Shown: positions 1 to 62,467, counted from the first letter of the stretch. The stretch is DNA of 64,000 bases from a virus (IMGVR_UViG_3300037420_002497); one strand, 5' to 3'. Made by a program: numbers and translations. Notes: generated by a model from the sequence alone, not told the origin.

Positions 1-454
1 TCCGTTCCCTCGGCGCGCCAAAGGCGCGACCCCCCTCCCGCCCCCTCTGGAGCGGCGCAGCTGGCGCGGCGCATCGCACCAGGGCGCAGGGCACAGGGGC
101 GCGGCGCAGCTGGGCCCCCTCATGCGGCGCACCAGGGGCGCAGGACACAGGCACCAGGGCGCACGCCAAGGGATGCGCCGCAGCTGGTGCGAGCTGCACC
201 GGGGCACAGGCACCAGGGACGCAGGGCGCAGGACCAGGGCACAGGGGCGCACCAGGGACAGGACCAGGGGCGCGGCGCAGCTGGGCCCAGAGCTGCACCA
301 GGGCGCGCCAGCTGTGCACCAGGGACGCAGGGCACCAGGGGCGCGGATGTCACGCACCAGGGGCCCAGAGGGGGCACCAGGGCGCGCCAGCTGGGCCCAG
401 AGCTGCACAGGCACCAGGGCACCAGAGCTGCGCGCCAGAGCTGCCCGGTTTACT

Positions 455-514
455 CCAGGGTGAACGGACCATTAACGCAGGGCGCAGCTTCCGTTAATGA
501 ATCGTTCACCCTGG
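455..514. repeat. imperfect 60-bp inverted repeat (long hairpin) inside the repeat array
   Basis: arms CCAGGGTGAACGgacCATTAACG and CGTTAATGaatCGTTCACCCTGG; the element is AT-richer than its flanks. Confidence 0.5.
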
Positions 515-1265
515 AGCAAAGCGACGGCGCAGGGGCACTAGGGCGCAGGACCAGGGCACCAGGGGCGCAGGGATGCGCCGCAGGGCACCAGGGCGCGGCG
601 CAGCTGGCCCCAGAGCTGCACAGGCACCAGGGACCAGGGACGCGCGCCAGCTGGGCCCATTCGTGCGCCGCAGGGCACCAGGGCACAGGACCAGGGCGCA
701 TGGCACCAGAGCTGCGGCGCAGGACCAGAGCAGGGCGCACCAGGGGCGCAGGGCACAGGGATGCGCCGCAGGGCACCAGGGGCCCGGGTTCACTAGGTGA
801 GCTGCACCAGGGCACCAGAGCTGCACAGCTGGGCCCGCTGCCTGGTGCAAGTAACATCCAGTAAGCGAAAGGCGCCCAGAGCAGGGCAACCCATGGCATC
901 CCCAGAGTGGAAAGCCACTGTGCACCCAGTTACATGGTCCCTTCGCGAGCAGGGCGCAGGGACTCAAAACGTGCACCTAGTGCACAGTGCGCAAGGCACC
1001 AGGGGCGCGCGTCAGCTGGGCCCAGAGCTGCGCACCAGGGACCAGGGCGCACCAGGGCGCAGGGATGCGCCGCAGGGCACCAGCTGCACCAGAGCTGCAC
1101 CAGGGCGCGCCAGCTGGGCCCAGAGCTGCGCGCAGGCACCAGGGGCCCGGGTTCACTAGGTGAGCTGCGGCGCAGGGCACCAGGGGCGCAGCTGGTGCGC
1201 CATGGGAGCGGCGCAGCTGGTGCGAGCTGCACCAGGGGCACAAAAGCAAAAAGGCCCGGTTTCCC

Positions 1266-1294
1266 GGGCCCCCTCATGCGGCGCAGCTGGTGCG
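1266..1294. repeat. direct repeat copy A (GGGCCCCTCATGCGGCGCAGCTGGTGCG)
   Basis: near-identical 27-28 bp copy at 3518-3545; partial copy at about 107-131. Confidence 0.5.
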
Positions 1295-1301
1295 GGTTGA
1301 A

Positions 1302-1607
1302 TCAATAGCGTGGCATCTTGAATTCATCGGGTGAGCAGCTGCGCACAAGCTCATGCCCACCGTAATAGTCCTGCTCCAGAGTATTGAAAACATCAACCCA
1401 GAATCCCTTTTTGCCCAGCTGCGCCGCGAGCTGCGCGCCACGCATCCAGCTAGCACGGTGGAAAATGTTCACAGGGCGCAGCTTTTCCGCACTGTCATAC
1501 ACCATGCACAAAAACGGATTTTCAAGCTCATATGCCGTGACGTGGCTGTCATGTTCGCTTGCAGCTTCAAAGGCGATAAGGGTGAGCAGGGTTTGCATTT
1601 TCAACAC
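1302..1607 (-). CDS. hypothetical protein (101 aa), lower-GC island
   Basis: ORF lies in a lower-GC segment and has a protein-like composition; last gene of a 4-gene minus-strand operon. Confidence 0.5.
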   Translation of the reverse strand: MLKMQTLLTLIAFEAASEHDSHVTAYELENPFLCMVYDSAEKLRPVNIFHRASWMRGAQLAAQLGKKGFWVDVFNTLEQDYYGGHELVRSCSPDEFKMPRY

Positions 1608-1638
1608 TCCAGAATTGCGGGTTGATTGATTCGGCGCT

Positions 1639-2028
1639 TTAGATTATCCAAACCCCTGATGTTTCCTTGCCTTCGGGCGCATGGGTTCGGGCAAGGTCAA
1701 TCAAGCTCTGCAACTGCGCCCATTCGCTAGGCAAGGCGCGCGCGGATTCGGATTGAATTTGATATTCCAGCGAATACAGCAGCGCCAGCGCATAAGCGGC
1801 AGCTTCGGGCGAATAGTCAATATCCGGGTATGCCTGCCTTTCCTGCTCATACACAGCAGCGAATCCGCGCAGGGGTTCGGGCGCGCAGTTATAGGCGTGC
1901 GCCATGGTGTGATTGTTCAAGCGGCGCAGCTGCTGTGCCAGCTTCGCAGGGTTGTTTGTATAGGTGCGGGCATGGGCCCATGCGGCAATGGCTGCGATAT
2001 GACGGACAGAGCAAAGGACGCTAGACAT
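1639..2028 (-). CDS. hypothetical protein (129 aa), lower-GC island
   Basis: ORF collinear with its neighbours; protein-like composition. Confidence 0.5.
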   Translation of the reverse strand: MSSVLCSVRHIAAIAAWAHARTYTNNPAKLAQQLRRLNNHTMAHAYNCAPEPLRGFAAVYEQERQAYPDIDYSPEAAAYALALLYSLEYQIQSESARALPSEWAQLQSLIDLARTHAPEGKETSGVWII

Positions 2029-2158
2029 GATGGAAACTCCAGAGGGTCAAAACATCAGGTGGACCAGGGCGCGCACCATATCGGCGAGCTGCGCGCCAGT
2101 CAGGGAAAGCGCTGCAGAACGGACAACGGCAAGAATCGTCGTTTTCATGCTGTGCCCC

Positions 2159-3001
2159 TCATGCTGCGATCGCGAGGGGGACAACCCGACGGGGCGCGTC
2201 CACAACGAATCCGCTCATGTCCGTTCGTGCCTTGCCTTTTGCGTAAAGCGCCACCACCACCCCCGGGGGGTCATAAGGGCGCAAATCCGAATTATCCCCA
2301 GGGACGCAGGGCAAACCCAGGAAAGTATTCGGGATGTCCTGTTCATTGCGGAAAACAACGGCAATGCGCATGCCCTGCGCAATTGCCTGTTGCACGTACT
2401 TTTGATAAGCAGGCAAGCCAGAGTATGAAAATGTCAAATCGTAGTTTTTGGGGATGCTGCGCCGGTTCGGGAGCTTGGTGTAATCGTAGAAAATCACACC
2501 AGGAAAAACCGCCATGATATTGACGTATTCACCAGGGGCGCAGCCGATTTTCTTGGCCATGTTTTGATCTACAAACACAGGGACAAGCTCCCAGCGAATG
2601 TCACTTGTCCCATTCAAGCGAACCATGAAAACGAATCCTTTGCGCTGGGCATAACGCAGTCGGCGCGCAATCTCCAGTGCCAGCGCTTGCATGAATTCCC
2701 GGCGGAATCGAATGAAAAGCTGGGTCTTGTTCATGCGGGCATCATTGATGCCGCTCATATGTTCGGCGCGCCCTGCGGTAAACAAACAGGGCTCCAGACA
2801 ACCCGCAATTGCCGCCATGGCGCACAGGTTTTGCCCGGACAGGTTACCGGGCGCAAGGTACAGAATGGCCGTTTGCACCTGCTCGGTTTCACCCTTTTTG
2901 GTTTTCGCATTCTCTGTGCCCAGCAAATCCGAAGGCACGTACAAACCAGCTGCCGCAGCCTTTTGAGCGAAAGCCTTTGCGCAATAATTGAAGTTTTCCA
3001 T
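2159..3001 (-). CDS. hypothetical protein with Cys cluster (C-x7-C-x3-C), 280 aa
   Basis: longest ORF of the low-GC island; motif LCAMAAIAGCLEPC; family not recognised. Confidence 0.55.
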   Translation of the reverse strand: MENFNYCAKAFAQKAAAAGLYVPSDLLGTENAKTKKGETEQVQTAILYLAPGNLSGQNLCAMAAIAGCLEPCLFTAGRAEHMSGINDARMNKTQLFIRFRREFMQALALEIARRLRYAQRKGFVFMVRLNGTSDIRWELVPVFVDQNMAKKIGCAPGEYVNIMAVFPGVIFYDYTKLPNRRSIPKNYDLTFSYSGLPAYQKYVQQAIAQGMRIAVVFRNEQDIPNTFLGLPCVPGDNSDLRPYDPPGVVVALYAKGKARTDMSGFVVDAPRRVVPLAIAA

Positions 3002-3014
3002 TTTCGCCCCCTGG

Positions 3015-3212
3015 TTAGATACTGCGAATGCGCTGGATGTCCGCGCGGATAATGGCGCGGATAGAAATACGCTGCGAAATATCGGCGCAATTGCGCGCGT
3101 GAATCAATATCCGAAGGGCCGATTCAATATGGATTCGGTTCATTTTCTTCCCATTCCACAGGTAAACAGCTGCGGTCCCTGTCGCATCCCGCACTGCGCG
3201 GGGCGAAGCCAC
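3015..3212 (-). CDS. small hypothetical protein (65 aa)
   Basis: lies 13 nt upstream of the 280-aa gene on the same strand; purine-rich stretch precedes the ATG. Confidence 0.35.
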   Translation of the reverse strand: MASPRAVRDATGTAAVYLWNGKKMNRIHIESALRILIHARNCADISQRISIRAIIRADIQRIRSI

Positions 3213-3278
3213 ACCCTATAGGCGCCGCGCCTGCTCTGGAATACGTCAAGCCCCCGCGTTTGAGGGGGTCACACAGAT

Positions 3279-3660
3279 TTAGGGGGGTGGACAGGGGGGG
3301 CGCGCCCAGTGCGAGCGTGCGAGCTGCGCCCGATTGCCTGCGACACAGGACCAGGGCGCACCAGGGCACCAGGGGCACAGCTGCACAGCTGGGCCCCTGG
3401 GCGCGCGCGCCACTCCACTAGTGACACAGGGCACAGGGCATGAGCTGCACCAGGGCACCAGCTGCACAGGACCAGGGGCACAGCTGCACAGCTGGGCCCC
3501 TGGGCGCGCGCCAGCTGGGCCCCTCATGCGGCGCAGCTGGTGCGACAGGGCGCGGCGCAGCTGGCGCGAGCTGCACCAGGGCACCAGAGCTGCGCCGCAG
3601 CTGGTGCACCAGGGCGCAGGACCAGGGCGCGCGGCGCACCAGGGGCGCAGCTGGGCCCAG
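3279..3660. repeat. second GC-rich degenerate repeat array (same module family as 60-1295)
   Basis: reiterated GCACCAGGG and CAGCTGGGCCC modules; six-frame ORFs. Confidence 0.6.
3518..3545. repeat. direct repeat copy B (GGGCCCCTCATGCGGCGCAGCTGGTGCG)
   Basis: matches 1266-1294. Confidence 0.5.
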
Positions 3661-3785
3661 GGCAAAAAAGCACGACCGATCGTTTCTGAAACCGATTTCA
3701 GGCGATTTTTTCGGGATCGAGCCCTGGGGGCCCGGTCGAGCCGGGCGCCTGGGCAACGGCCCGGCGCTGGAAACGGAAAACGCCG

Positions 3786-3911
3786 ACCCCTTCCGGGGGA
3801 ATCACGGGCGAAAACGGCCCCGCCAGTTTTTCCCAGGTCGAGCCCGGCCCTGCCGGCCGCACCCCTTCCGTGGGAATCACGGACGGCGCACCCCTTCCGT
3901 GGGAATGAAGG
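3786..3911. repeat. three copies of the ACCCCTTCCGKGGGAATCACGG motif
   Basis: copies at 3786-3807, 3861-3882 and 3890-3911; the same motif recurs at 17777 after a stop codon. Confidence 0.6.
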
Positions 3912-3949
3912 GCCGAAGCGCCGACCCCCATGAACGAGGGTTACTGTAC

Positions 3950-3980
3950 TTGCATCCATAGGCGCGCCGCCTATATGATC
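3950..3980 (+). promoter_or_regulatory. promoter-operator copy 1 (TTGCAT -35, palindrome ATAGGCGCGCCGCCTAT, TATGAT -10)
   Basis: 17-bp palindrome at 3958-3974 sits between the -35-like and -10-like hexamers; the element is repeated 6 times in the window. Confidence 0.6.
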
Positions 3981-4009
3981 AAGGCTCGCACCGACCACCA
4001 GACAACGCA

Positions 4010-4480
4010 ATGACCACCAAGCCCACCACCAGCCAGCAGCGCCAGCTGATCCTGGACTTCGTGCAGACGGCGCAAAGTCTGGGCGCCACCGGCATCGCCG
4101 TGCGGCTGCCCTCCAGCGACCGGCTCATCGCCTCGCGCGCGGCGCGCCAGATCCGGGGCGATCGCGCCCTGGCCGACTACCACGATGAGCTGGGCAACCG
4201 GGTGAGCCTGGACATGGACGGCGTGGTGCGCCAGTACCTGAAGGGCGAGAAGCCCAGGGCTGCCGCCCCTTCCCCGGCTGTGTCGGTCGTGCTGCGCACC
4301 TGGGACAACGAGCTGGGCGGCTGGCAGCGCCAGTCCATCACCGACTGCGTGGTGGACGGACTGGACGCCGAGCAGCTGCGCAACGCCGCCACGCTGGAGG
4401 AGATCGCCGAGGCCTACGTGCTGGCGCGTCACCCGACCCTGCGCCTGGGCGATTACGGCATCGACATCCGCCTGGGCTGA
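4010..4480 (+). CDS. hypothetical protein (156 aa)
   Basis: first ORF after promoter copy 1. Confidence 0.6.
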   Translation: MTTKPTTSQQRQLILDFVQTAQSLGATGIAVRLPSSDRLIASRAARQIRGDRALADYHDELGNRVSLDMDGVVRQYLKGEKPRAAAPSPAVSVVLRTWDNELGGWQRQSITDCVVDGLDAEQLRNAATLEEIAEAYVLARHPTLRLGDYGIDIRLG

Positions 4481-4510
4481 GCCCCTTCCCCTCCTCCCCG
4501 GAGCCACCGC

Positions 4511-4744
4511 ATGAACGTCCGCACCGCCATCCGCATCGCCCGCGAGTTGCGCCCCGCGATCGGCGCCCATACGCGCCTGATCGGCAACAGCAACGCCACG
4601 CAGGAGCAGTACGAGGCAGCCGAGCTGGCCAGCTCCGAGGCTGTGTCCCTGGCGAAGTACCTGATCTGCCACCTGGACGATCGCCACGCCGCTGTGGTGT
4701 TCGCCCGTGCCGTGGGCATGCCCGGCTACATCAACCTGCGCTGA
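4511..4744 (+). CDS. hypothetical protein (77 aa)
   Basis: GGAGCCACCGCATG start context. Confidence 0.5.
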   Translation: MNVRTAIRIARELRPAIGAHTRLIGNSNATQEQYEAAELASSEAVSLAKYLICHLDDRHAAVVFARAVGMPGYINLR

Positions 4745-4782
4745 CCGGCAGCGCCGACCACCCCCACCCTCCAGGAGCCACC

Positions 4783-5178
4783 ATGACCACCACCAAGCAC
4801 CTGACCGAGAAGCGCGCCGCCGACCGCAAGCGCATGGCAGACCAGCTGCAGCAGCTGGTGCTGAGGCTGGGCGGCACCGTCGAGCGCAGCCAGCTCACGC
4901 CGCGCTGCGAGATGCTGGACATCACCGGTGCGCAGGGTCTGCACGTCTACATCGACCTCGACGGCGAAAGCTGCCAGCCCGACGTGCATGTGATCCCCTG
5001 GCACATCACCTCCCCCTCCGAGGCCAAGCTGGCGCCCAGCTTCGGGGACGTGAACCCGCACCACTTCCGCAAGGCCACGCACGTTGTGTATGGCTTCGCC
5101 GCGCTGCACGCCGAGATCGAGCGCGGCCTGAGCGCAGCCAAGGACGGCAGCGCCTTCCAGCGCCAGCACGGCGCCTGA
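4783..5178 (+). CDS. hypothetical protein (131 aa)
   Basis: CAGGAGCCACCATG start context. Confidence 0.6.
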   Translation: MTTTKHLTEKRAADRKRMADQLQQLVLRLGGTVERSQLTPRCEMLDITGAQGLHVYIDLDGESCQPDVHVIPWHITSPSEAKLAPSFGDVNPHHFRKATHVVYGFAALHAEIERGLSAAKDGSAFQRQHGA

Positions 5179-5215
5179 CCCTTCCACCACTCGACAGATT
5201 CGACAGGAGCACACC

Positions 5216-5731
5216 ATGGGCTGGACCTTCCCCTACTGCACCAACACCCGCGCGCAACTGGTTGAGCACCTGCGCCGCCCCGAGCGCTTCGGCGATCGCA
5301 CCGAACTGCTGGCCGCCTGCACGCGCGGCAACCATCACTGGTATCTGGCGCGCAACAAGGACACCGGCGTGGTGTGGATCGGCCTGGACCTGATGCAGGG
5401 CGGCACGCGCCGCGAGCCGGGCTGGGGCTACAAGGACATGGACGAGTCCATGGGCCCGTATGCCAGCGACTGCCCGCTGAGCTACCTGGACCGGGCCACC
5501 GAGCCCTGCAACGAACACAGCCGCGACTGGCGCGACGGGGTGCGCAAGTACCACGCCCAGCGCAAGGAACGCCCCGAGCCGCGCGCCGGGCTGCGCGTGA
5601 CCTACTGCGGCCACACCTACGAACTGGTGCGCCCCGCCGGCCCGCGCCGGGGCTGGGAAGTGCGCAACACCAGCGGGACCACGTACCGCATGAACGCGCG
5701 CCAGCTGGCCAGCGCCCAGCCGGTTGCCTGA
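5216..5731 (+). CDS. hypothetical Cys/His-rich protein (171 aa)
   Basis: ACAGGAGCACACCATG start context; TGACCCTTCC motif follows the upstream stop codon. Confidence 0.6.
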   Translation: MGWTFPYCTNTRAQLVEHLRRPERFGDRTELLAACTRGNHHWYLARNKDTGVVWIGLDLMQGGTRREPGWGYKDMDESMGPYASDCPLSYLDRATEPCNEHSRDWRDGVRKYHAQRKERPEPRAGLRVTYCGHTYELVRPAGPRRGWEVRNTSGTTYRMNARQLASAQPVA

Positions 5732-5761
5732 GCCCTTCCCCATCACTACAGGAGCTGCACC

Positions 5762-6169
5762 ATGCACACCCTCTACCGGGTCCACGCCAACGGCACCACG
5801 TTCGGGGACTACCTTGCCGACGACACCCAGGGCGCGCGCAACGCTTGCGCCATGGATGCCGGCTATGCGAGCGAGGCCGACATGGAGCGCCAGCTGGAGC
5901 GCCCCAGCGGACTGGTTGCCGAGCCCATCCCCTGCGTCATCACGCTGAGCTGCGAGGTCGCCAAGGTGCAGGCCGGCGGCTTCGTGTACTACGCAGAGTT
6001 CTACGTGGAGCCCGGCGCCGGCTTCGATGCCGACCTGTACGCCCAGACCTTCGACCTGAACCGTGCCGAGATGGATGCGGACAGCGTGAAGGCGGCGCAG
6101 GACGCGGCGGCGCGGCTGGGCGCCGACGAGGTGCTGATGGTGGGCCGCGTCATCCAGCCGAAGATGTGA
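5762..6169 (+). CDS. hypothetical protein (135 aa)
   Basis: CAGGAGCTGCACCATG start context. Confidence 0.6.
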   Translation: MHTLYRVHANGTTFGDYLADDTQGARNACAMDAGYASEADMERQLERPSGLVAEPIPCVITLSCEVAKVQAGGFVYYAEFYVEPGAGFDADLYAQTFDLNRAEMDADSVKAAQDAAARLGADEVLMVGRVIQPKM

Positions 6170-6255
6170 CCACCGTTGAAGTCGCCACAAGGTTGCGAGC
6201 CACCCTCCAGCGCCAGCCGGCGCCCGATCATCTGCACCCCCACCAGGAGCACCCC

Positions 6256-6519
6256 ATGACCACCAGCACCGCGAACATCGTTGAGATCCTGATCTGGGCC
6301 CCGCAGGTCTGCGGGGAGGACCACACCGGCGCCACGGTCGCCGAAGCGGTGGCCTATGCCGCCAGCCTGGGCGGCCACGCCCAGATCCTGGGCGCCGACT
6401 GGGAGCTGTCCTGGTTCGCGGACTCCACCGACCCCTGGAACTGGATCAAGGCCCGGGGCCCGGTGCCGGCGCACCATGCCCAGGAGCTGGAGCGGGCGCT
6501 GCGCGCGCTGGCCACCTGA
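6256..6519 (+). CDS. hypothetical protein (87 aa)
   Basis: internal start chosen at CAGGAGCACCCCATG; an intrinsic terminator follows. Confidence 0.5.
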   Translation: MTTSTANIVEILIWAPQVCGEDHTGATVAEAVAYAASLGGHAQILGADWELSWFADSTDPWNWIKARGPVPAHHAQELERALRALAT

Positions 6520-6540
6520 GCACCGAGCCCTGCGGCGCCA

Positions 6541-6565
6541 GCCCGGCCCAGCCGGGCTTTTTTTC
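6541..6565 (+). terminator. rho-independent terminator
   Basis: stem GCCCGGCCCAGCCGGGC followed by TTTTTTT. Confidence 0.7.
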
Positions 6566-6597
6566 GCCTGCGGCCCCTCGTTTGCATGGGAAGATGC

Positions 6598-6628
6598 TTG
6601 CGTTGATAGGCGCGCCGCCTATATGATC
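6598..6628 (+). promoter_or_regulatory. promoter-operator copy 2
   Basis: TTGCGT, then the palindrome at 6606-6622, then TATGAT; conserved leader GGCTCGCTCAACGCACCGGAGA. Confidence 0.6.
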
Positions 6629-6657
6629 GAGGCTCGCTCAACGCACCGGAGACCGAG

Positions 6658-7029
6658 ATGCCCAACTGGATTCGCCGCCCGCAGCTGATGGTCGAGACCC
6701 ACCACGAGCTGGTGTATGCGTCCCTGACGCACGCGGGCACCGAGTACCGCTTCACCTGCAACGAGAAGGGCGAAGTGGACCCGGCTGGGCAGACCGAAGC
6801 GCGGCAGCTGGCGCTGGCGCGCTGCGTCGCGGGCCTGGGCACCGCATACGCCCAGCCGCGTCTGGTCTCGCGCGAGCACAGCTGGTTCGACTCTGGCGCC
6901 ATCCGCTGCCACTGCGGCGCGCGCCACGAGCTGGAGCGCCACGACAGCACCTGCGACAGCTGCGGCCAGGACTACAACGGCTTCGGCCAGGAGCTGCGCC
7001 CGCAGTCGCAGTGGGAGGAGGACTACTGA
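6658..7029 (+). CDS. zinc-ribbon-like protein (123 aa)
   Basis: CHCG...C..C motif near the C-terminus; first ORF after the promoter. Confidence 0.6.
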   Translation: MPNWIRRPQLMVETHHELVYASLTHAGTEYRFTCNEKGEVDPAGQTEARQLALARCVAGLGTAYAQPRLVSREHSWFDSGAIRCHCGARHELERHDSTCDSCGQDYNGFGQELRPQSQWEEDY

Positions 7030-7078
7030 GTCCGCCACCCCTTCCACGCCTACCCGCAACCATCCCAGGAGCCACACC

Positions 7079-7750
7079 ATGAAGCCCACCAAAGCCGCCA
7101 CCAGCAACGCACGCAAGGCCCGCGCACAGCGCGCCGACGAGATCATCTGCACCGTTCCCCGCGAGGGAGACGGCGGCTGGTATCTGGATCTTTACTGGCT
7201 TTATTCCAATGGCCGCTATGGCGTCAGCGACACCGATGGGAACCACACCAGCTGCTACGCCCGCGAGCTGCCCAACGCCCGCGAGGAGGCGCAGGCGTGG
7301 CTGGACTATTCCCTGCACGTCGAGAGCACCGGCACCGATCCCCTGGGCGAGTTCAACATCAAGGCGGTGGAGCGCATCAACGAGCTGTGGCACTTCAGGG
7401 TCGAGCCGGATGCGCAAGGCAAGACCCGCGTCCTGGCCGCGCGCCACCACAACGACGCCGAGACCCCGCTGGACGCGCTGCCCGAGCACGTCACCGACTA
7501 CCTGCACCTGATCCCAGGCACGAACGTGTCCGATGACGACTGGACGGCAGTGGCCGACTTCCACGGGGTCAAGCCGGGCGACTGGCTGCAGGACACGGTG
7601 GAGTCCATCACACGCCGCCCGGACGGCGTGGTGCGCGCCGAGCTGATCGAGGCCGCCCGCGCCAGCGTGGAGCGCCAGCGCACGGCGCTGGAGTGGCTGC
7701 CTGCCCGCAAGCGGCGCACGAAGGCCACCCCCGCCCCAGCGCAACCCTGA
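7079..7750 (+). CDS. hypothetical protein (223 aa)
   Basis: CAGGAGCCACACCATG start context. Confidence 0.6.
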   Translation: MKPTKAATSNARKARAQRADEIICTVPREGDGGWYLDLYWLYSNGRYGVSDTDGNHTSCYARELPNAREEAQAWLDYSLHVESTGTDPLGEFNIKAVERINELWHFRVEPDAQGKTRVLAARHHNDAETPLDALPEHVTDYLHLIPGTNVSDDDWTAVADFHGVKPGDWLQDTVESITRRPDGVVRAELIEAARASVERQRTALEWLPARKRRTKATPAPAQP

Positions 7751-7765
7751 ACAGGAGCCACCACC

Positions 7766-7999
7766 ATGACCACGACCCAAGCACCAGCAGCCGAGTTGCG
7801 CCGCGCATGGCTTGTGCCAACGCCCGCCTGGACCCATCCCGCGTGGGTTGTCTGCGCACCCAGACCCATCACCGAGGATGACGCACGGCTGTCCGTCTTT
7901 GGCCCGGTGCCCGCCGGCTTCCCAACCGCGACGCACTTCTTCCCGGCCAACAGCGAGCAGGCCGGCAAGGAGCTGGTGGCGAGCCTGTTGGAGATATAG
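7766..7999 (+). CDS. hypothetical protein (77 aa)
   Basis: CAGGAGCCACCACCATG start context. Confidence 0.5.
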   Translation: MTTTQAPAAELRRAWLVPTPAWTHPAWVVCAPRPITEDDARLSVFGPVPAGFPTATHFFPANSEQAGKELVASLLEI

Positions 8000-8010
8000 G
8001 CGCGCCGCCC
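7996..8010 (+). promoter_or_regulatory. partial (half) copy of the operator palindrome
   Basis: ATAGGCGCGCCGCCC lacks the right arm; lies 30 nt upstream of full copy 3. Confidence 0.4.
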
Positions 8011-8031
8011 CTCGTTTGAGTGGTGATTCTC

Positions 8032-8062
8032 TTGATCGCATAGGCGCGCCGCCTATATGATC
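8032..8062 (+). promoter_or_regulatory. promoter-operator copy 3
   Basis: TTGATC, then the palindrome at 8040-8056, then TATGAT; same conserved leader as copy 2. Confidence 0.6.
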
Positions 8063-8092
8063 TGGGCTCGCTCAACGCAAACGGAGATCGAC

Positions 8093-9061
8093 ATGCAAGC
8101 CACCACCACCCGCACCGGCACCGCCTTCGACGACATGGACAGCGACCTGGGCGCGCTGGCCGGCGAGACCGCCGTCTACGTCCCGGGCGAAGGCCGCAAC
8201 CGTCGCGAGCCGCGCGAGGAGCTGGTGGCGCTGCACGAGGAGAAGTGCCCGAAGTGCCAGGGCTCGGGCCGCTTCCGGGGATTCACGGGCCGCCTGCTGG
8301 GCCAATGCTTCACTTGCCAGGGCGGCGGCAAGGTGTTCTTCAAGACCAGCGCCGTGCAGCGCGCCAAGTGCCGCGAGCAGGCCAAGGCGCGCGAGGAGCG
8401 CAAGCAGCAGGAGGCGCACAGCGCCTTCGCGGCCGAGCACCCGACCGAGTGGGCGTGGATGCGGGAGCGCGCCCTGCGCTGGGACTTCGCCCGCTCCATG
8501 GTCGAGGCGGTGGCCAAGTGGGGCCGCCTGACGGACGGCCAGCTGGCCGCCGTGCGCAAGTGCATCGCCAAGGATGCCGAGCGCGCCCAGCTGCGCGCCG
8601 CCGAGCAGCAGCAGCGCGCCGAGCTGGAGCGCACCGCCCAGGCGGTGAACATCGCCGCCGTCGAGGAAGCCTTCCAGCGCGCCAAGGACCGGCAGGTGAA
8701 TCGCCCGAAGCTGCGCCTTGCCGCCGATGCGGTGGAAGGCGCCGATGCGGCCGAGTACGTGTTCAGCCCGGCCGGCGAGAACAGCCGCAACGCCGGGTCC
8801 GTGTACGTCACCACCCGCCCGGAGCGCGGCGAGGAAGGGGTCTACCTGGGCAAGATCATGGGCGGCAAGTTCCTGAAGGTGCGCGACTGCAGCGCCGCCC
8901 AGGAAGCGCAGATCGTCGCCGTCGCATCCAACCCGGGCGAGGCCGCCAAGGCCTACGGGCAGCGCATCGGCGCCTGCAGCGTGTGCGGTCGCACCCTGAC
9001 GGACGGCACCAGCATCGACCTGGGCATCGGGCCGATTTGCGCAGAGCGCTACGGGTTCTAA
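8093..9061 (+). CDS. zinc-ribbon protein (322 aa) with C-terminal CxxCGRxLTDGTSIDLGIGPICA motif
   Basis: start placed by analogy with the other cassettes; motifs CPKCQGSG, CFTCQGGG and CSVCGR are present. Confidence 0.6.
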   Translation: MQATTTRTGTAFDDMDSDLGALAGETAVYVPGEGRNRREPREELVALHEEKCPKCQGSGRFRGFTGRLLGQCFTCQGGGKVFFKTSAVQRAKCREQAKAREERKQQEAHSAFAAEHPTEWAWMRERALRWDFARSMVEAVAKWGRLTDGQLAAVRKCIAKDAERAQLRAAEQQQRAELERTAQAVNIAAVEEAFQRAKDRQVNRPKLRLAADAVEGADAAEYVFSPAGENSRNAGSVYVTTRPERGEEGVYLGKIMGGKFLKVRDCSAAQEAQIVAVASNPGEAAKAYGQRIGACSVCGRTLTDGTSIDLGIGPICAERYGF

Positions 9062-60884: not shown

Positions 60885-61916
60885 ATGAGCATCGACCTTT
60901 CGCAATCCCTGGACCTGGGCGACCTGAGCGCCACCGCCGCCACCGGCGAGCCGCTGAAGCTGTGGGCCGCCACCATCCGGCCCAGCCGCTGGGCCAACCG
61001 CCACGAGCTGAGCTTCCTGAGCCCGGAGTTCAACGCCCTGAAGGAGGAGATCAAGAACGCGGGCGGCAACGTCCAGCCGATCAAGGTGCGCCCGCTGGCG
61101 CAGCCCGAGGACGGCGTGGAGTACGAGGTGGTGTTCGGCCACCGCCGCCACCGCGCCTGCCTGGAGCTGGGCATCGAGGTGGCCGCCGTGGTCGAGGCCG
61201 TGGACGACCAGCATCTGTGGGCGCAGATGGAGCGCGAGAACCGCGCCCGCGAGCCGCTGTCGGCCTACGAGCAGGGGACGATGTACCAGCGCGCGATGGA
61301 CGAAGGGCTGTTCCCGTCCATCCAGGCGCTGGCCAAGGCGATCGGCCGCAGCGCGGGCGACATCAGCAAGGCCATCTCCATCGCCCGGCTCCCGCCCGAG
61401 GTGGTGCAGGCCTTCGGCTCACCCCAGGACATCGGGTTCCGCGACGCCAAGCCGCTGAAGGACGCGGTGGAGGCGGCGCCCGAGGCGGTGGCCCAGGCCG
61501 CCCGCGCGCTGGCCGCCGTGCCCCAGGCGCTGCCGCCGAAGGTGGTGGTGCAGCGGCTCGCCGCCGCCGCCGGCATGGCCGATGACGACCAGAACGAAGC
61601 CGAGGAGGAGCCGGCCGAGGCGGCTGTTGGACGGTCCAACAAGGCCAAGGCAGCGCCCGCGCCGAGCCCGGCAGCGCCAGCTGTTGGGCCGTCCAACAAG
61701 CCCGCGCCGGCCCCGAAGGCGGCCCCGGTTGCGCACCTGCGGGTGGTGGTCGAGGTCGGCGAGGAGCTGATGGAGCTGGTCACCGACTGCCGCCCGAAGC
61801 GGGGCCTGATCCCGGTGCGGCCAGTGGCCAGCGATGAGGCGCCGCAGTACCTGCCGGCGGGCAAGGTGCGCATCGTCCGTGCCGAGGCCCAGGCGCCCCG
61901 CACGTTTACGGGTTAA
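60885..61916 (+). CDS. parB: ParB-like partition protein (343 aa)
   Basis: N-terminal ParB/Srx-like motif VVFGHRRHRACLELG; follows parA; CAGGAGCCACACATG start context. Confidence 0.65.
   Translation: MSIDLSQSLDLGDLSATAATGEPLKLWAATIRPSRWANRHELSFLSPEFNALKEEIKNAGGNVQPIKVRPLAQPEDGVEYEVVFGHRRHRACLELGIEVAAVVEAVDDQHLWAQMERENRAREPLSAYEQGTMYQRAMDEGLFPSIQALAKAIGRSAGDISKAISIARLPPEVVQAFGSPQDIGFRDAKPLKDAVEAAPEAVAQAARALAAVPQALPPKVVVQRLAAAAGMADDDQNEAEEEPAEAAVGRSNKAKAAPAPSPAAPAVGPSNKPAPAPKAAPVAHLRVVVEVGEELMELVTDCRPKRGLIPVRPVASDEAPQYLPAGKVRIVRAEAQAPRTFTG
61625..61641. promoter_or_regulatory. dispersed palindrome site 5 (TGTTGGACGGTCCAACA), inside the parB 3' region
   Basis: perfect palindrome. Confidence 0.5.
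61682..61698. promoter_or_regulatory. dispersed palindrome site 6 (TGTTGGGCCGTCCAACA), inside the parB 3' region
   Basis: one mismatch. Confidence 0.45.
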
Positions 61917-62450: not shown

Positions 62451-62467
62451 TGTTGGACGGTCCAACA
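62451..62467. promoter_or_regulatory. dispersed palindrome site 7 (TGTTGGACGGTCCAACA), intergenic after the terminator
   Basis: identical, including flanks, to site 5. Confidence 0.5.

Follow-up and report, generated by a model that had tools for sequence, protein, structure and literature searches.

How does a cluster of genes with conspicuously lower guanine-plus-cytosine (GC) content come to lie between two GC-rich repeat arrays in a viral genome, and what part do the arrays play there? The question is raised by the first 3,660 nucleotides (nt) of IMGVR_UViG_3300037420_002497, a viral stretch of 64,000 nt that is referred to here, at its full length, as the window. Two arrays, A1 and A2, enclose an island of small open reading frames (ORFs), the largest of which encodes a protein of the GP88 family. 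Phage genomes are mosaics, and to our knowledge only a few model groups have known cis-elements by which small early or anti-host genes pass from one phage to an unrelated one. Our answer, offered tentatively, is that the island may be an early-gene cassette, mobile and self-contained, that lies in resident satellite-like DNA on which recombination would act. The added value of the case is that the cassette-between-arrays architecture, a previously undescribed arrangement, recurs around GP88 in unrelated high-GC phages.

Positions 1-8988 of the window are 100% identical to the end of L030, a 122,796-bp metagenome contig of the Joint Genome Institute (JGI), and a sister strain is represented by L026, a 123,000-bp contig from a related sample (seen too as L001 and L002). 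Comparison within the phage is thus between two strains, the window/L030 type and the L001/L026 type.

Anatomy of the arrays

47..1245, plus strand: array A1, a strand-polar, aperiodic, non-coding mosaic of short modules
~3300..3660, plus strand: array A2, with modules and polarity as in A1
1267..1294, plus strand: first copy of a 28-nt direct repeat, separating the last island gene's stop codon from the terminator, which it overlaps
3517..3544, plus strand: second copy of the 28-nt repeat, inside A2
107..131, plus strand: partial third copy (GGGCCCCCTCATGCGGCGCA...), no full-length match being found here at up to three mismatches
446..523: 78-nt hairpin in A1, with 32-nt arms (446-477 and 492-523) that are 84% complementary; DNA fold -29.8 kcal/mol, z = -6.98
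830..990: non-repeat insert in A1, with a terminator-like hairpin on the minus strand (986-970)

Both arrays are built from modules of 7-20 nt, all in one orientation, the A1 set comprising GCACCAGGG, GCGCAGGG, CACAGGG, GACCAGGG, CAGCTGGGCCCAGAGCTGC and GGATGCGCCGCAGG. There are 36 copies of GCACCAGGG in the window against 1.7 expected, 31 of them within 76-1237 and 3358-3644 and every one of these on the plus strand, while CAGCTGGGCCCAGAGCTGC has five copies in A1 against none expected. Composition is equally skewed (A 0.18-0.20, C 0.33-0.36, G 0.39-0.42, T 0.05-0.08), with T residues almost confined to AGCTG and with CAG recurring at 6-13-nt intervals, and the GC content of A1 (0.72) and A2 (0.751) stands against 0.548 in the island and 0.684 in the rest of the window. 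Tandem Repeats Finder returned only short and conflicting periods (7-37 nt) and a repeat search gave 20 overlapping degenerate families, so that the arrays have no fixed period. Because T, and hence the stop codon, is rare, open frames cross the arrays in several frames, and these frames differ between the two strains.

Much of this was anticipated by the initial annotation, made from the sequence alone, which described aperiodic, non-protein-like mosaics around a visibly GC-poorer island. Its extents needed correction: the mosaics at 60-1295 and 3279-3660 are real, but the A1 repeats run from 47 to 1245, with 1247-1276 belonging to a terminator, and A2 begins at about 3300. Of the three copies that it gave for a repeat of 27-28 bp, two are full 28-nt copies, both at positions kept in L001, and the one at 107-131 is partial. 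Its 60-bp hairpin at 455-514 is likewise genuine (z about -7.0), with arms lying somewhat further out at 446-477 and 492-523; this hairpin is strain-specific, being a single copy in the window and missing from L001. Folding of the insert (820-1000) was no better than that of shuffles.

The view that the repeats have no described counterpart was also borne out: they are neither CRISPR nor coding, and no Rfam family matched them at the gathering threshold (chance miRNA matches alone appeared at E <= 1). Elsewhere in the window the modules were not found in array form, and neither 185,579 species genomes nor a metagenome collection contained arrays of them. Three-module pattern scans of the species genomes and of metagenome contigs gave 23 loci each, all of them single chance or coding matches or an unrelated 62-nt tandem repeat, and a 24-nt repeat of the arrays had no match in metagenome contigs.

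A1 also contains a non-module segment, GGCCCGGGTTCACTAGGTGAGCTGC, repeated exactly twice (781-805 and 1144-1168). It has CACTAGGT in common with GCACTAGGTACGTGCCCAGGGCGAGGCAC, which occurs three times in an array of the unrelated L243 (~3690-3720, 3870-3900), maybe by chance.

The island and its GP88 gene

3213..3299, minus strand: putative control region with TTGACG, CCTATAGGCGCCGCGCC and a GCCCCC/GGGGGT hairpin; the promoter is a candidate
3015..3212, minus strand: ORF of 65 amino acids (aa), or 42 aa from an internal ATG at 3143, the first gene of the island unit; the 42-aa form is kept in L001
2159..3001, minus strand: GP88-family protein, 280 aa, the largest island ORF and the only one with homologues elsewhere
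2047..2148, minus strand: hydrophobic ORF of 33 aa, MKTTILAVVRSAALSLTGAQLADMVRALVHLMF, a JGI pipeline call
1639..2028, minus strand: ORF of 129 aa, an ORFan known from the two strains only (77% identical)
1302..1607, minus strand: ORF of 101 aa (98 aa from ATG), an ORFan
1247..1276, minus strand: intrinsic terminator of the island unit, GGGGGCCCGGGAAACCGGGCC then TTTTTGCTTTTG, with a 13-pair stem and a T-run

The island spans 1.9 kb at 55% GC in a genome of 68% GC and carries five minus-strand ORFs, not the four genes first counted. A sigma-70 scan of the region upstream of it gave no consensus promoter. Its 280-aa protein matches Pfam PF17338 (GP88) at E 7.7e-34, with 118 bits against a cut-off of 24.4 and over profile positions 5-229 of 230, and phrog_1617 at E 2.5e-60; more than 6,400 homologues are found at E < 1e-20, nearly all in phage contigs. 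The cysteine cluster C-x7-C-x3-C, already noticed in the initial annotation, is formed by C60, C68 and C72, which are invariant in 31 homologues. Profile searches, which had been proposed for three of the proteins, were informative for this one alone, the 129- and 101-aa proteins being ORFans, the latter matching only itself among 1.84 billion representatives. No homology was found among the small cassette ORFs of different phages.

The predicted fold of GP88 is a partial TIM barrel that is closest, with weak likeness, to radical S-adenosylmethionine (SAM) enzymes, and its Cx7Cx3C arrangement differs from their canonical CX3CX2C motif; on this structural model GP88 is possibly an iron-sulphur/SAM enzyme. 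Within the lineage its relatives are P0002 and, at 86% identity, P0003; the next nearest, outside it, are just 58% identical, and the two of these whose contigs were inspected (L137, L139) lie on lower-GC contigs. This distance, together with a GC content of 0.55 against 0.68, supports the earlier suspicion that the island is foreign. Of 91 GP88 loci taken from IMG/VR and other collections, 31 show a gap of over 5 GC points between the gene and its flanks, in both directions, so that GP88 counts as highly mobile. The reverse of the present case is seen in L223-L230 (GP88 ~5001-5672), where a GP88 gene of GC ~0.60 sits tightly packed and without arrays in phages of GC ~0.41-0.44; GP88 thus crosses large GC distances both ways.

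As to the replicon itself, immediately left of window position 1, and all on the minus strand, the contigs L001, L026 and L030 carry an HNH endonuclease, three small ORFs, TerL, the portal and a ClpP-type prohead protease (Pfam assignments). From 4010 rightward come dozens of small plus-strand genes, an early module, and farther downstream DUF932, DUF6011, a Sak4-like ATPase, RtcB and ParA/ParB. Such gene content marks the replicon, on the evidence of sequence, as a high-GC tailed phage of ~123 kb, possibly with a plasmid-like prophage state. The locus is accordingly placed at a non-coding divergent junction, with the packaging/structural operon on one side and the early operon on the other.

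In other phages GP88 is usually one of the first early genes (Autographiviridae, pelagiphages) or stands right beside the terminase genes. Given that position and a phage replicon, an early, host-directed or anti-host function, as we infer for GP88, is more plausible than host defence. The proposal that the island is possibly a small defence or modification module is unsupported: the seven island proteins of both strains had no match to PADLOC at E <= 0.01, nor did the island proteins match any NCBIfam model.

Comparison of two strains

Against a backbone identity of 94-98% between the two strains, the island core is 89% identical, A2 95.6% and the right ~290 nt of A1 (1018-1310) 91-94%. The left ~970 nt of A1 has been rebuilt in the sister strain, with partly different modules in another order, so that 96 of ~750 distinct 12-mers are common to both. 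Within it, the non-repeat insert at 830-990 has a mean column identity of 72% to L001 9340-9520, in an alignment that includes the flanks, and thus falls far under the backbone. The description of the locus as hypervariable is apt for this left ~1 kb but not for A2.

When the strains were compared for presence or absence of the island, as the initial annotation had suggested, both were found to carry it, with arrays flanking, and the genes that differ are those adjacent to the arrays. Beside A1, the 101-aa ORF is replaced in the sister strain by a 40%-identical protein of 123 aa; beside A2, L001 gains ~950 nt with two further ORFs, the first of which (188 aa) lies between copies of a 22-nt direct-repeat leader. 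The differences within A2 consist of a 7-nt indel of one module and a clustered conversion of CCCCTGG to CACCAGG, the canonical module, the indels being 7, 1 and 1 nt in all. The arrays evolve, then, by module-wise slippage, conversion and segment replacement.

Recurrence in other phages

The same three-part layout of GC-rich array, low-GC GP88 island and GC-rich array is present in four further lineages, with unrelated modules in each. In L211, a prophage of an isolate genome, arrays at 4101-4650 and 6201-6950 with modules GCTCGAGGCCTGGCA, CGCTCCTGGCGTGCC and GCGTGTGTGCC enclose an island of GC 0.48-0.55 against 0.62-0.66. L137 presents, in order, TerS, an array of (GGTGC)n and GCGCACAGGTGG with an assembly gap, GP88 with five ORFs, and an array of 23-nt units, its island having a GC of 0.38-0.46 in a backbone of 0.58-0.66. 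Its relatives L243 and L244 keep the flank and carry wholly different arrays (island GC 0.51-0.57 against 0.68). L251 has GGCA/GGCAGAGCC mosaics upstream and, directly after the GP88 terminator, a 480-nt mosaic of GGCGAC, GGCCAC and GGCGCA. Smaller, one-sided arrays adjoin GP88 in L154, L234, L205, L250 and L275.

Among loci with a GC content of at least 0.58, non-coding arrays lie beside GP88 in 5 of 14, as against 2 (marginal) of 42 terminase-flank controls (Fisher p = 0.008; 0.023 with L243 and L244 counted once). Throughout, array GC tracks or exceeds that of the resident genome and not that of the cassette. Polarity relative to GP88 is inconstant; relative to the packaging genes it is known for this phage and L137/L243 only. 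The arrays are not simply a feature of the terminase clade, since 78 TerL-related loci have none.

Arrays of this kind break assemblies and create spurious genes. The scaffold of L137 has its run of Ns exactly inside the GP88-adjacent array (5540-5640), and the JGI gene caller put 'proteins' of 128 to 349 aa inside A1 and A2 (L026 4852-5901, L030 9270-9656).

In L211 an imperfectly palindromic element of 65 nt occurs after GP88 and again after the next ORF (5697-5761 and 6196-6260, 89% identical). It is followed by GCTCCTGGC(A/G)NT(C/T)GTGCC and a ribosome-binding site, and the array modules resemble its second part. From its sequence and placement it looks like a terminator-plus-leader unit bounding single-gene cassettes.

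A proposed mobile cassette in satellite-like DNA

The account that we favour, while keeping it tentative, draws on the anatomy of the locus, the island's foreign GC, the differences between strains at the array edges, the module indels and conversion, and the recurrence of the layout around GP88 in unrelated phages. The cassette would be a horizontally acquired transcription unit running from its control region (~3213-3299) through five ORFs to the terminator (1276-1247). Slippage, unequal exchange and gene conversion acting on the 7-20-nt modules would drive turnover of the resident non-coding arrays, and A1 and A2 could then act as a substrate for the gain, loss and replacement of cassette genes, because they are directly oriented and have modules in common, including the exact 28-nt repeat at the bounds of the cassette. 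It is our inference that the cassette is moved by recombination in the arrays.

The nearest precedent may be the PeSL mobile regulatory cassettes, which Arbiol et al. in 2010 reportedly described from hyperplastic regions of T4-type phages. As there, short repeated non-coding elements flank small, variable and often foreign ORFs; direct repeats bound the cassettes (here the 28-nt repeat for the island and the 22-nt leader repeat for the extra gene of L001); and close relatives differ in gene content at the repeats. PeSL are, however, single defined units of ~50-70 nt comprising an early promoter and a stem-loop, whereas the present arrays are polar, 0.4-1.2 kb long, and without a fixed unit or promoter consensus.

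Several observations weigh against this account. Firstly, no recombinase or integrase is among the annotated genes in or beside the island, and neither an empty-site allele (a fused array without island) nor a circular intermediate was found. Secondly, most GP88 loci have no arrays (L139 and L226, for example), tightly packed ones included, and arrays are therefore unneeded for GP88 transfer; as module sequences differ between lineages, they cannot give homology for transfer from one lineage to another, and even the two arrays flanking the L137 island have no modules in common. Thirdly, at least three assemblies of separate samples share the window-type arrays without a single change, so that array turnover is not fast and not on a phase-variation time scale, a further respect in which 'hypervariable' overstated the case. 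One must also consider that the strain evidence comes from two strains of this phage only, and that the association with arrays was found via GP88 and set against one narrow terminase clade.

A bolder form of the idea, which we consider unlikely, holds that GP88-led cassettes would be an unrecognised class of mobile phage element, exchanged through, or themselves generating, the polar aperiodic arrays at their flanks, and that the arrays would thus be a new cis element and not a by-product; by analogy, such cassettes would be a prokaryotic-virus counterpart of switch-region-type recombination. Immunoglobulin class-switch regions are kilobase-long, directly oriented, G-rich degenerate repeats (AGCT/GAGCT) that flank a segment which can be looped out by recombination, and A1 and A2 resemble them as two kilobase, directly oriented, G-rich degenerate arrays around a DNA segment. 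The resemblance is one of analogy: class switching is eukaryotic and depends on AID and on transcription, there is no homology or shared machinery, and deletion between A1 and A2 was not observed.

Alternative explanations

Improbable, in our estimate, is a reading of the arrays as a dense, oriented cluster of Chi-like sites near a genome end, which would attenuate entering RecBCD and stimulate recombination as a concentrated, non-coding version of the clusters in LLS and MD8. In those genomes exact host octamers, 23 in LLS and 32 in MD8, lie in active orientation toward the right end of an ordinary gene-dense genome (PMC12315714). In both cases a short motif containing G and T is gathered in one orientation only, in LLS and MD8 near one genome end and here near a presumed one. 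The present arrays are strictly polar, and CTGGTGC occurs 38 times on their minus strand (1,560 nt) against 16 times in the 60-kb backbone; CTGGTG, the top array core, is also the core of E. coli Chi, GCTGGTGG, and would lie on the right strand for the nearest presumed end. With 5 copies in 1.56 kb, the array minus strand has the Pseudomonas-type Chi GCTGGCGC at ~6-fold the density of the backbone, where 31 copies occur in 60 kb, and there are 2 copies on the plus strand of the arrays, although this octamer was reported from Pseudomonas and may not be that of the phage's host. A host with RecBCD is likely, as the relatives of TerL (60-73% identical, in ~40-kb prophages and in Pseudomonas and enterobacterial phages) infect Pseudomonas and enterics. 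For RecBCD coming in from the terminase/HNH side the minus strand would be the active one, and it is on that side that HK97-type phages, by analogy, lead one to expect cos; this orientation is right only if cos does lie on the HNH/TerS side.

Set against this, exact GCTGGTGG is absent from the arrays, which instead pack ~40 degenerate copies into non-coding DNA, and the array motif, unlike Chi in LLS and MD8, shows no enrichment elsewhere in the genome. The G-rich GCTGG-type octamers lie on the plus strand, the inactive orientation; the arrays of L211, L137, L243 and L251 use other motifs with no consistent polarity relative to GP88; and the phage encodes a Sak4-like annealing protein of its own. 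Chi is mostly undefined outside enterics (PMC8022716), and the Chi sequences compared may not be those of the host. GCTGGCGC is also the most frequent octamer of the whole window (54 on the plus strand, 37 on the minus), a count that may reflect codon usage.

We give low probability, too, to the arrays being a protein-binding platform, whose degenerate sites would act as an insulator or boundary, as a sponge for a regulator, or as an injection or packaging signal like the repeat regions of T5. The arrays start exactly outside the transcription unit, past its terminator and upstream of its control region, as the downstream array of L251 does after the GP88 terminator, and polarity and T-poor composition are kept while sequence turns over. 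In L211 the module CGCTCCTGGCGTGCC resembles GCTCCTGGCAGTCGTGCC, which occurs once each upstream of GP88, between GP88 and the next ORF, and after that ORF; in the window no module copy stands in front of the island genes. T5, a ~122-kb phage, offers a parallel in its first-step-transfer DNA, where kilobase-scale untranslated, repeat-rich DNA (regions of 0.2-1.2 kb) lies beside early genes near the genome end and one repeat region has been split in two by insertion of an HNH gene (10.1101/866236). The T5 regions are, however, highly conserved among relatives, their order included, and contain inverted repeats, palindromes and DnaA boxes, whereas these arrays are polar, turn over between strains and have no DnaA boxes (TTWTNCACA is absent from both strands of 1-4000). 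Nor can a candidate binding protein be named. Sigma-54-like matches number only 4 in the arrays, the whole window having 12 observed against 8.4 expected, GGA is too scarce for a CsrA/RsmA sponge, and the partition centromere appears to lie elsewhere, at parB.

The arrays might instead be neutral satellite DNA, slippage-prone GC-rich sequence that expanded in a dispensable intergenic region, the cassette having landed where insertions are tolerated. Absence of sequence conservation between lineages, the rebuilt left part of A1, the many GP88 loci without arrays and the lack of any structure, RNA family or coding signal all accord with this. It is quite unlikely all the same, for the two-sided layout recurs in independent lineages and is enriched over controls, A2 and the right part of A1 are held at backbone-level identity, strict strand polarity is maintained, and 1.56 kb of dispensable DNA would be carried in a size-limited capsid.

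More doubtful still is the idea that the arrays are footprints, left as repeated insertion and excision of GP88 cassettes, or DNA damage inflicted in cis by their products, was followed by microhomology-mediated or templated repair that piled up duplications on both sides. That array GC matches or surpasses that of the resident backbone, the cassette retaining its own, that the arrays are lineage-specific in sequence yet flank GP88 cassettes in at least five lineages, that GP88 is very mobile, and that aperiodic mosaics of very short units are what serial templated insertions would give, are all in its favour. No cassette protein has a demonstrated nuclease or transposase function, though, and the modelled GP88 fold would point to radical-SAM-like enzymes and not to nucleases; many mobile GP88 copies have no arrays, and strict polarity over 1.2 kb is not an obvious product of random repair.

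The remaining candidates can be dismissed briefly. CRISPR arrays, integron attC sites and REP/BIME elements are likewise clusters of short repeats in non-coding DNA beside variable content, but here there are no constant repeat-spacer units (periods conflict, and the families are degenerate and overlapping), no integrase among island or neighbouring genes, no attC-type inverted repeats (the arrays having a single, strain-specific inverted repeat), no Rfam match, and modules that are polar and not palindromic. A low-complexity coding gene is excluded by frames that are not kept between strains and by the A2 indels of 7, 1 and 1 nt; a partition centromere by the absence of array modules at parB, where TGTTGGACGGTCCAACA (61625, 61682, 62451) is the better candidate; a CsrA/RsmA sponge by 3-9 GGA per array segment; and a sigma-54 promoter array by GGCAC-N6-TGC occurring 4 times in the arrays, with a window total at chance level. 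G-quadruplexes or KOPS fail because the G-runs abundant here are missing from the L211 and L243 arrays, a universal CAG core because GP88 loci cannot be told from controls by CAG/CTG asymmetry, a structured RNA because Rfam was null and shuffles fold just as well as the insert at 820-1000, and a T5-type first-step-transfer repeat or injection stop signal because the left part of A1 is not conserved between strains and TTWTNCACA is lacking from 1-4000.

If the arrays are a recombination substrate, Chi-like sites or protein-binding signals, they provide a new marker by which cassette hot spots can be recognised computationally, and also a way to approach what GP88 does. Were they junk, assembly breaks and spurious gene calls in such phages would still be accounted for.

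Genome context and other features

1..46: left boundary of the locus, whose positions 1-23 close a 36-nt block, GAGAGCCGGTGGTTCCGTTCCCTCGGCGCGCCAAAG, kept in both strains (alignment with L001)

Contig ends gather near the left edge of A1 (L030 5762-5992 region): the independent 7.5-kb contig L031 stops 2 nt before window position 1, L034 stops ~230 nt earlier, and the window too begins at this place, for which a physical end or an assembly effect are both possible. A 1.07-kb non-coding gap (L030 3864-4935) parts the HNH gene from the small ORFs that come before TerL, and by analogy with HK97-type phages a cos region between HNH and TerS, that is, in this gap, is likely. The HNH endonuclease itself (L030 4935-5762, minus strand) has sub-threshold matches to the HNH region of IscB/Cas9d models (E 9e-7, 28 bits against a cut-off of 175), which most likely reflect the shared HNH motif only. 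Megablast found no near relative among deposited phages and, among plasmids, nothing for the locus, giving just short matches of 77-81% within the DUF932 gene at ~14 kb (43 Xanthomonas plasmids).

The 17-nt palindrome TGTTGGACGGTCCAACA occurs three times in perfect or near-perfect form, at 61625-61641, 61682-61698 and 62451-62467, within or just after the ParB gene (60885-61916); from sequence and position, these copies are likely to be the parS centromere of the phage ParA/ParB system. At the other side of the junction, upstream of the first early gene, three 25-nt direct repeats of the CCGACCCCTTCCGGGGGAATCACGG type lie at 3783-3911 and are followed, at 3950-3985, by TTGCAT ... TATATGAT with the embedded palindrome ATAGGCGCGCCGCCTAT. 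The motif CCTATAGGCGCCGCGCC upstream of the island (3215-3232) is related to this early-promoter palindrome (3957-3978), and the two look like a common operator for the divergent units.

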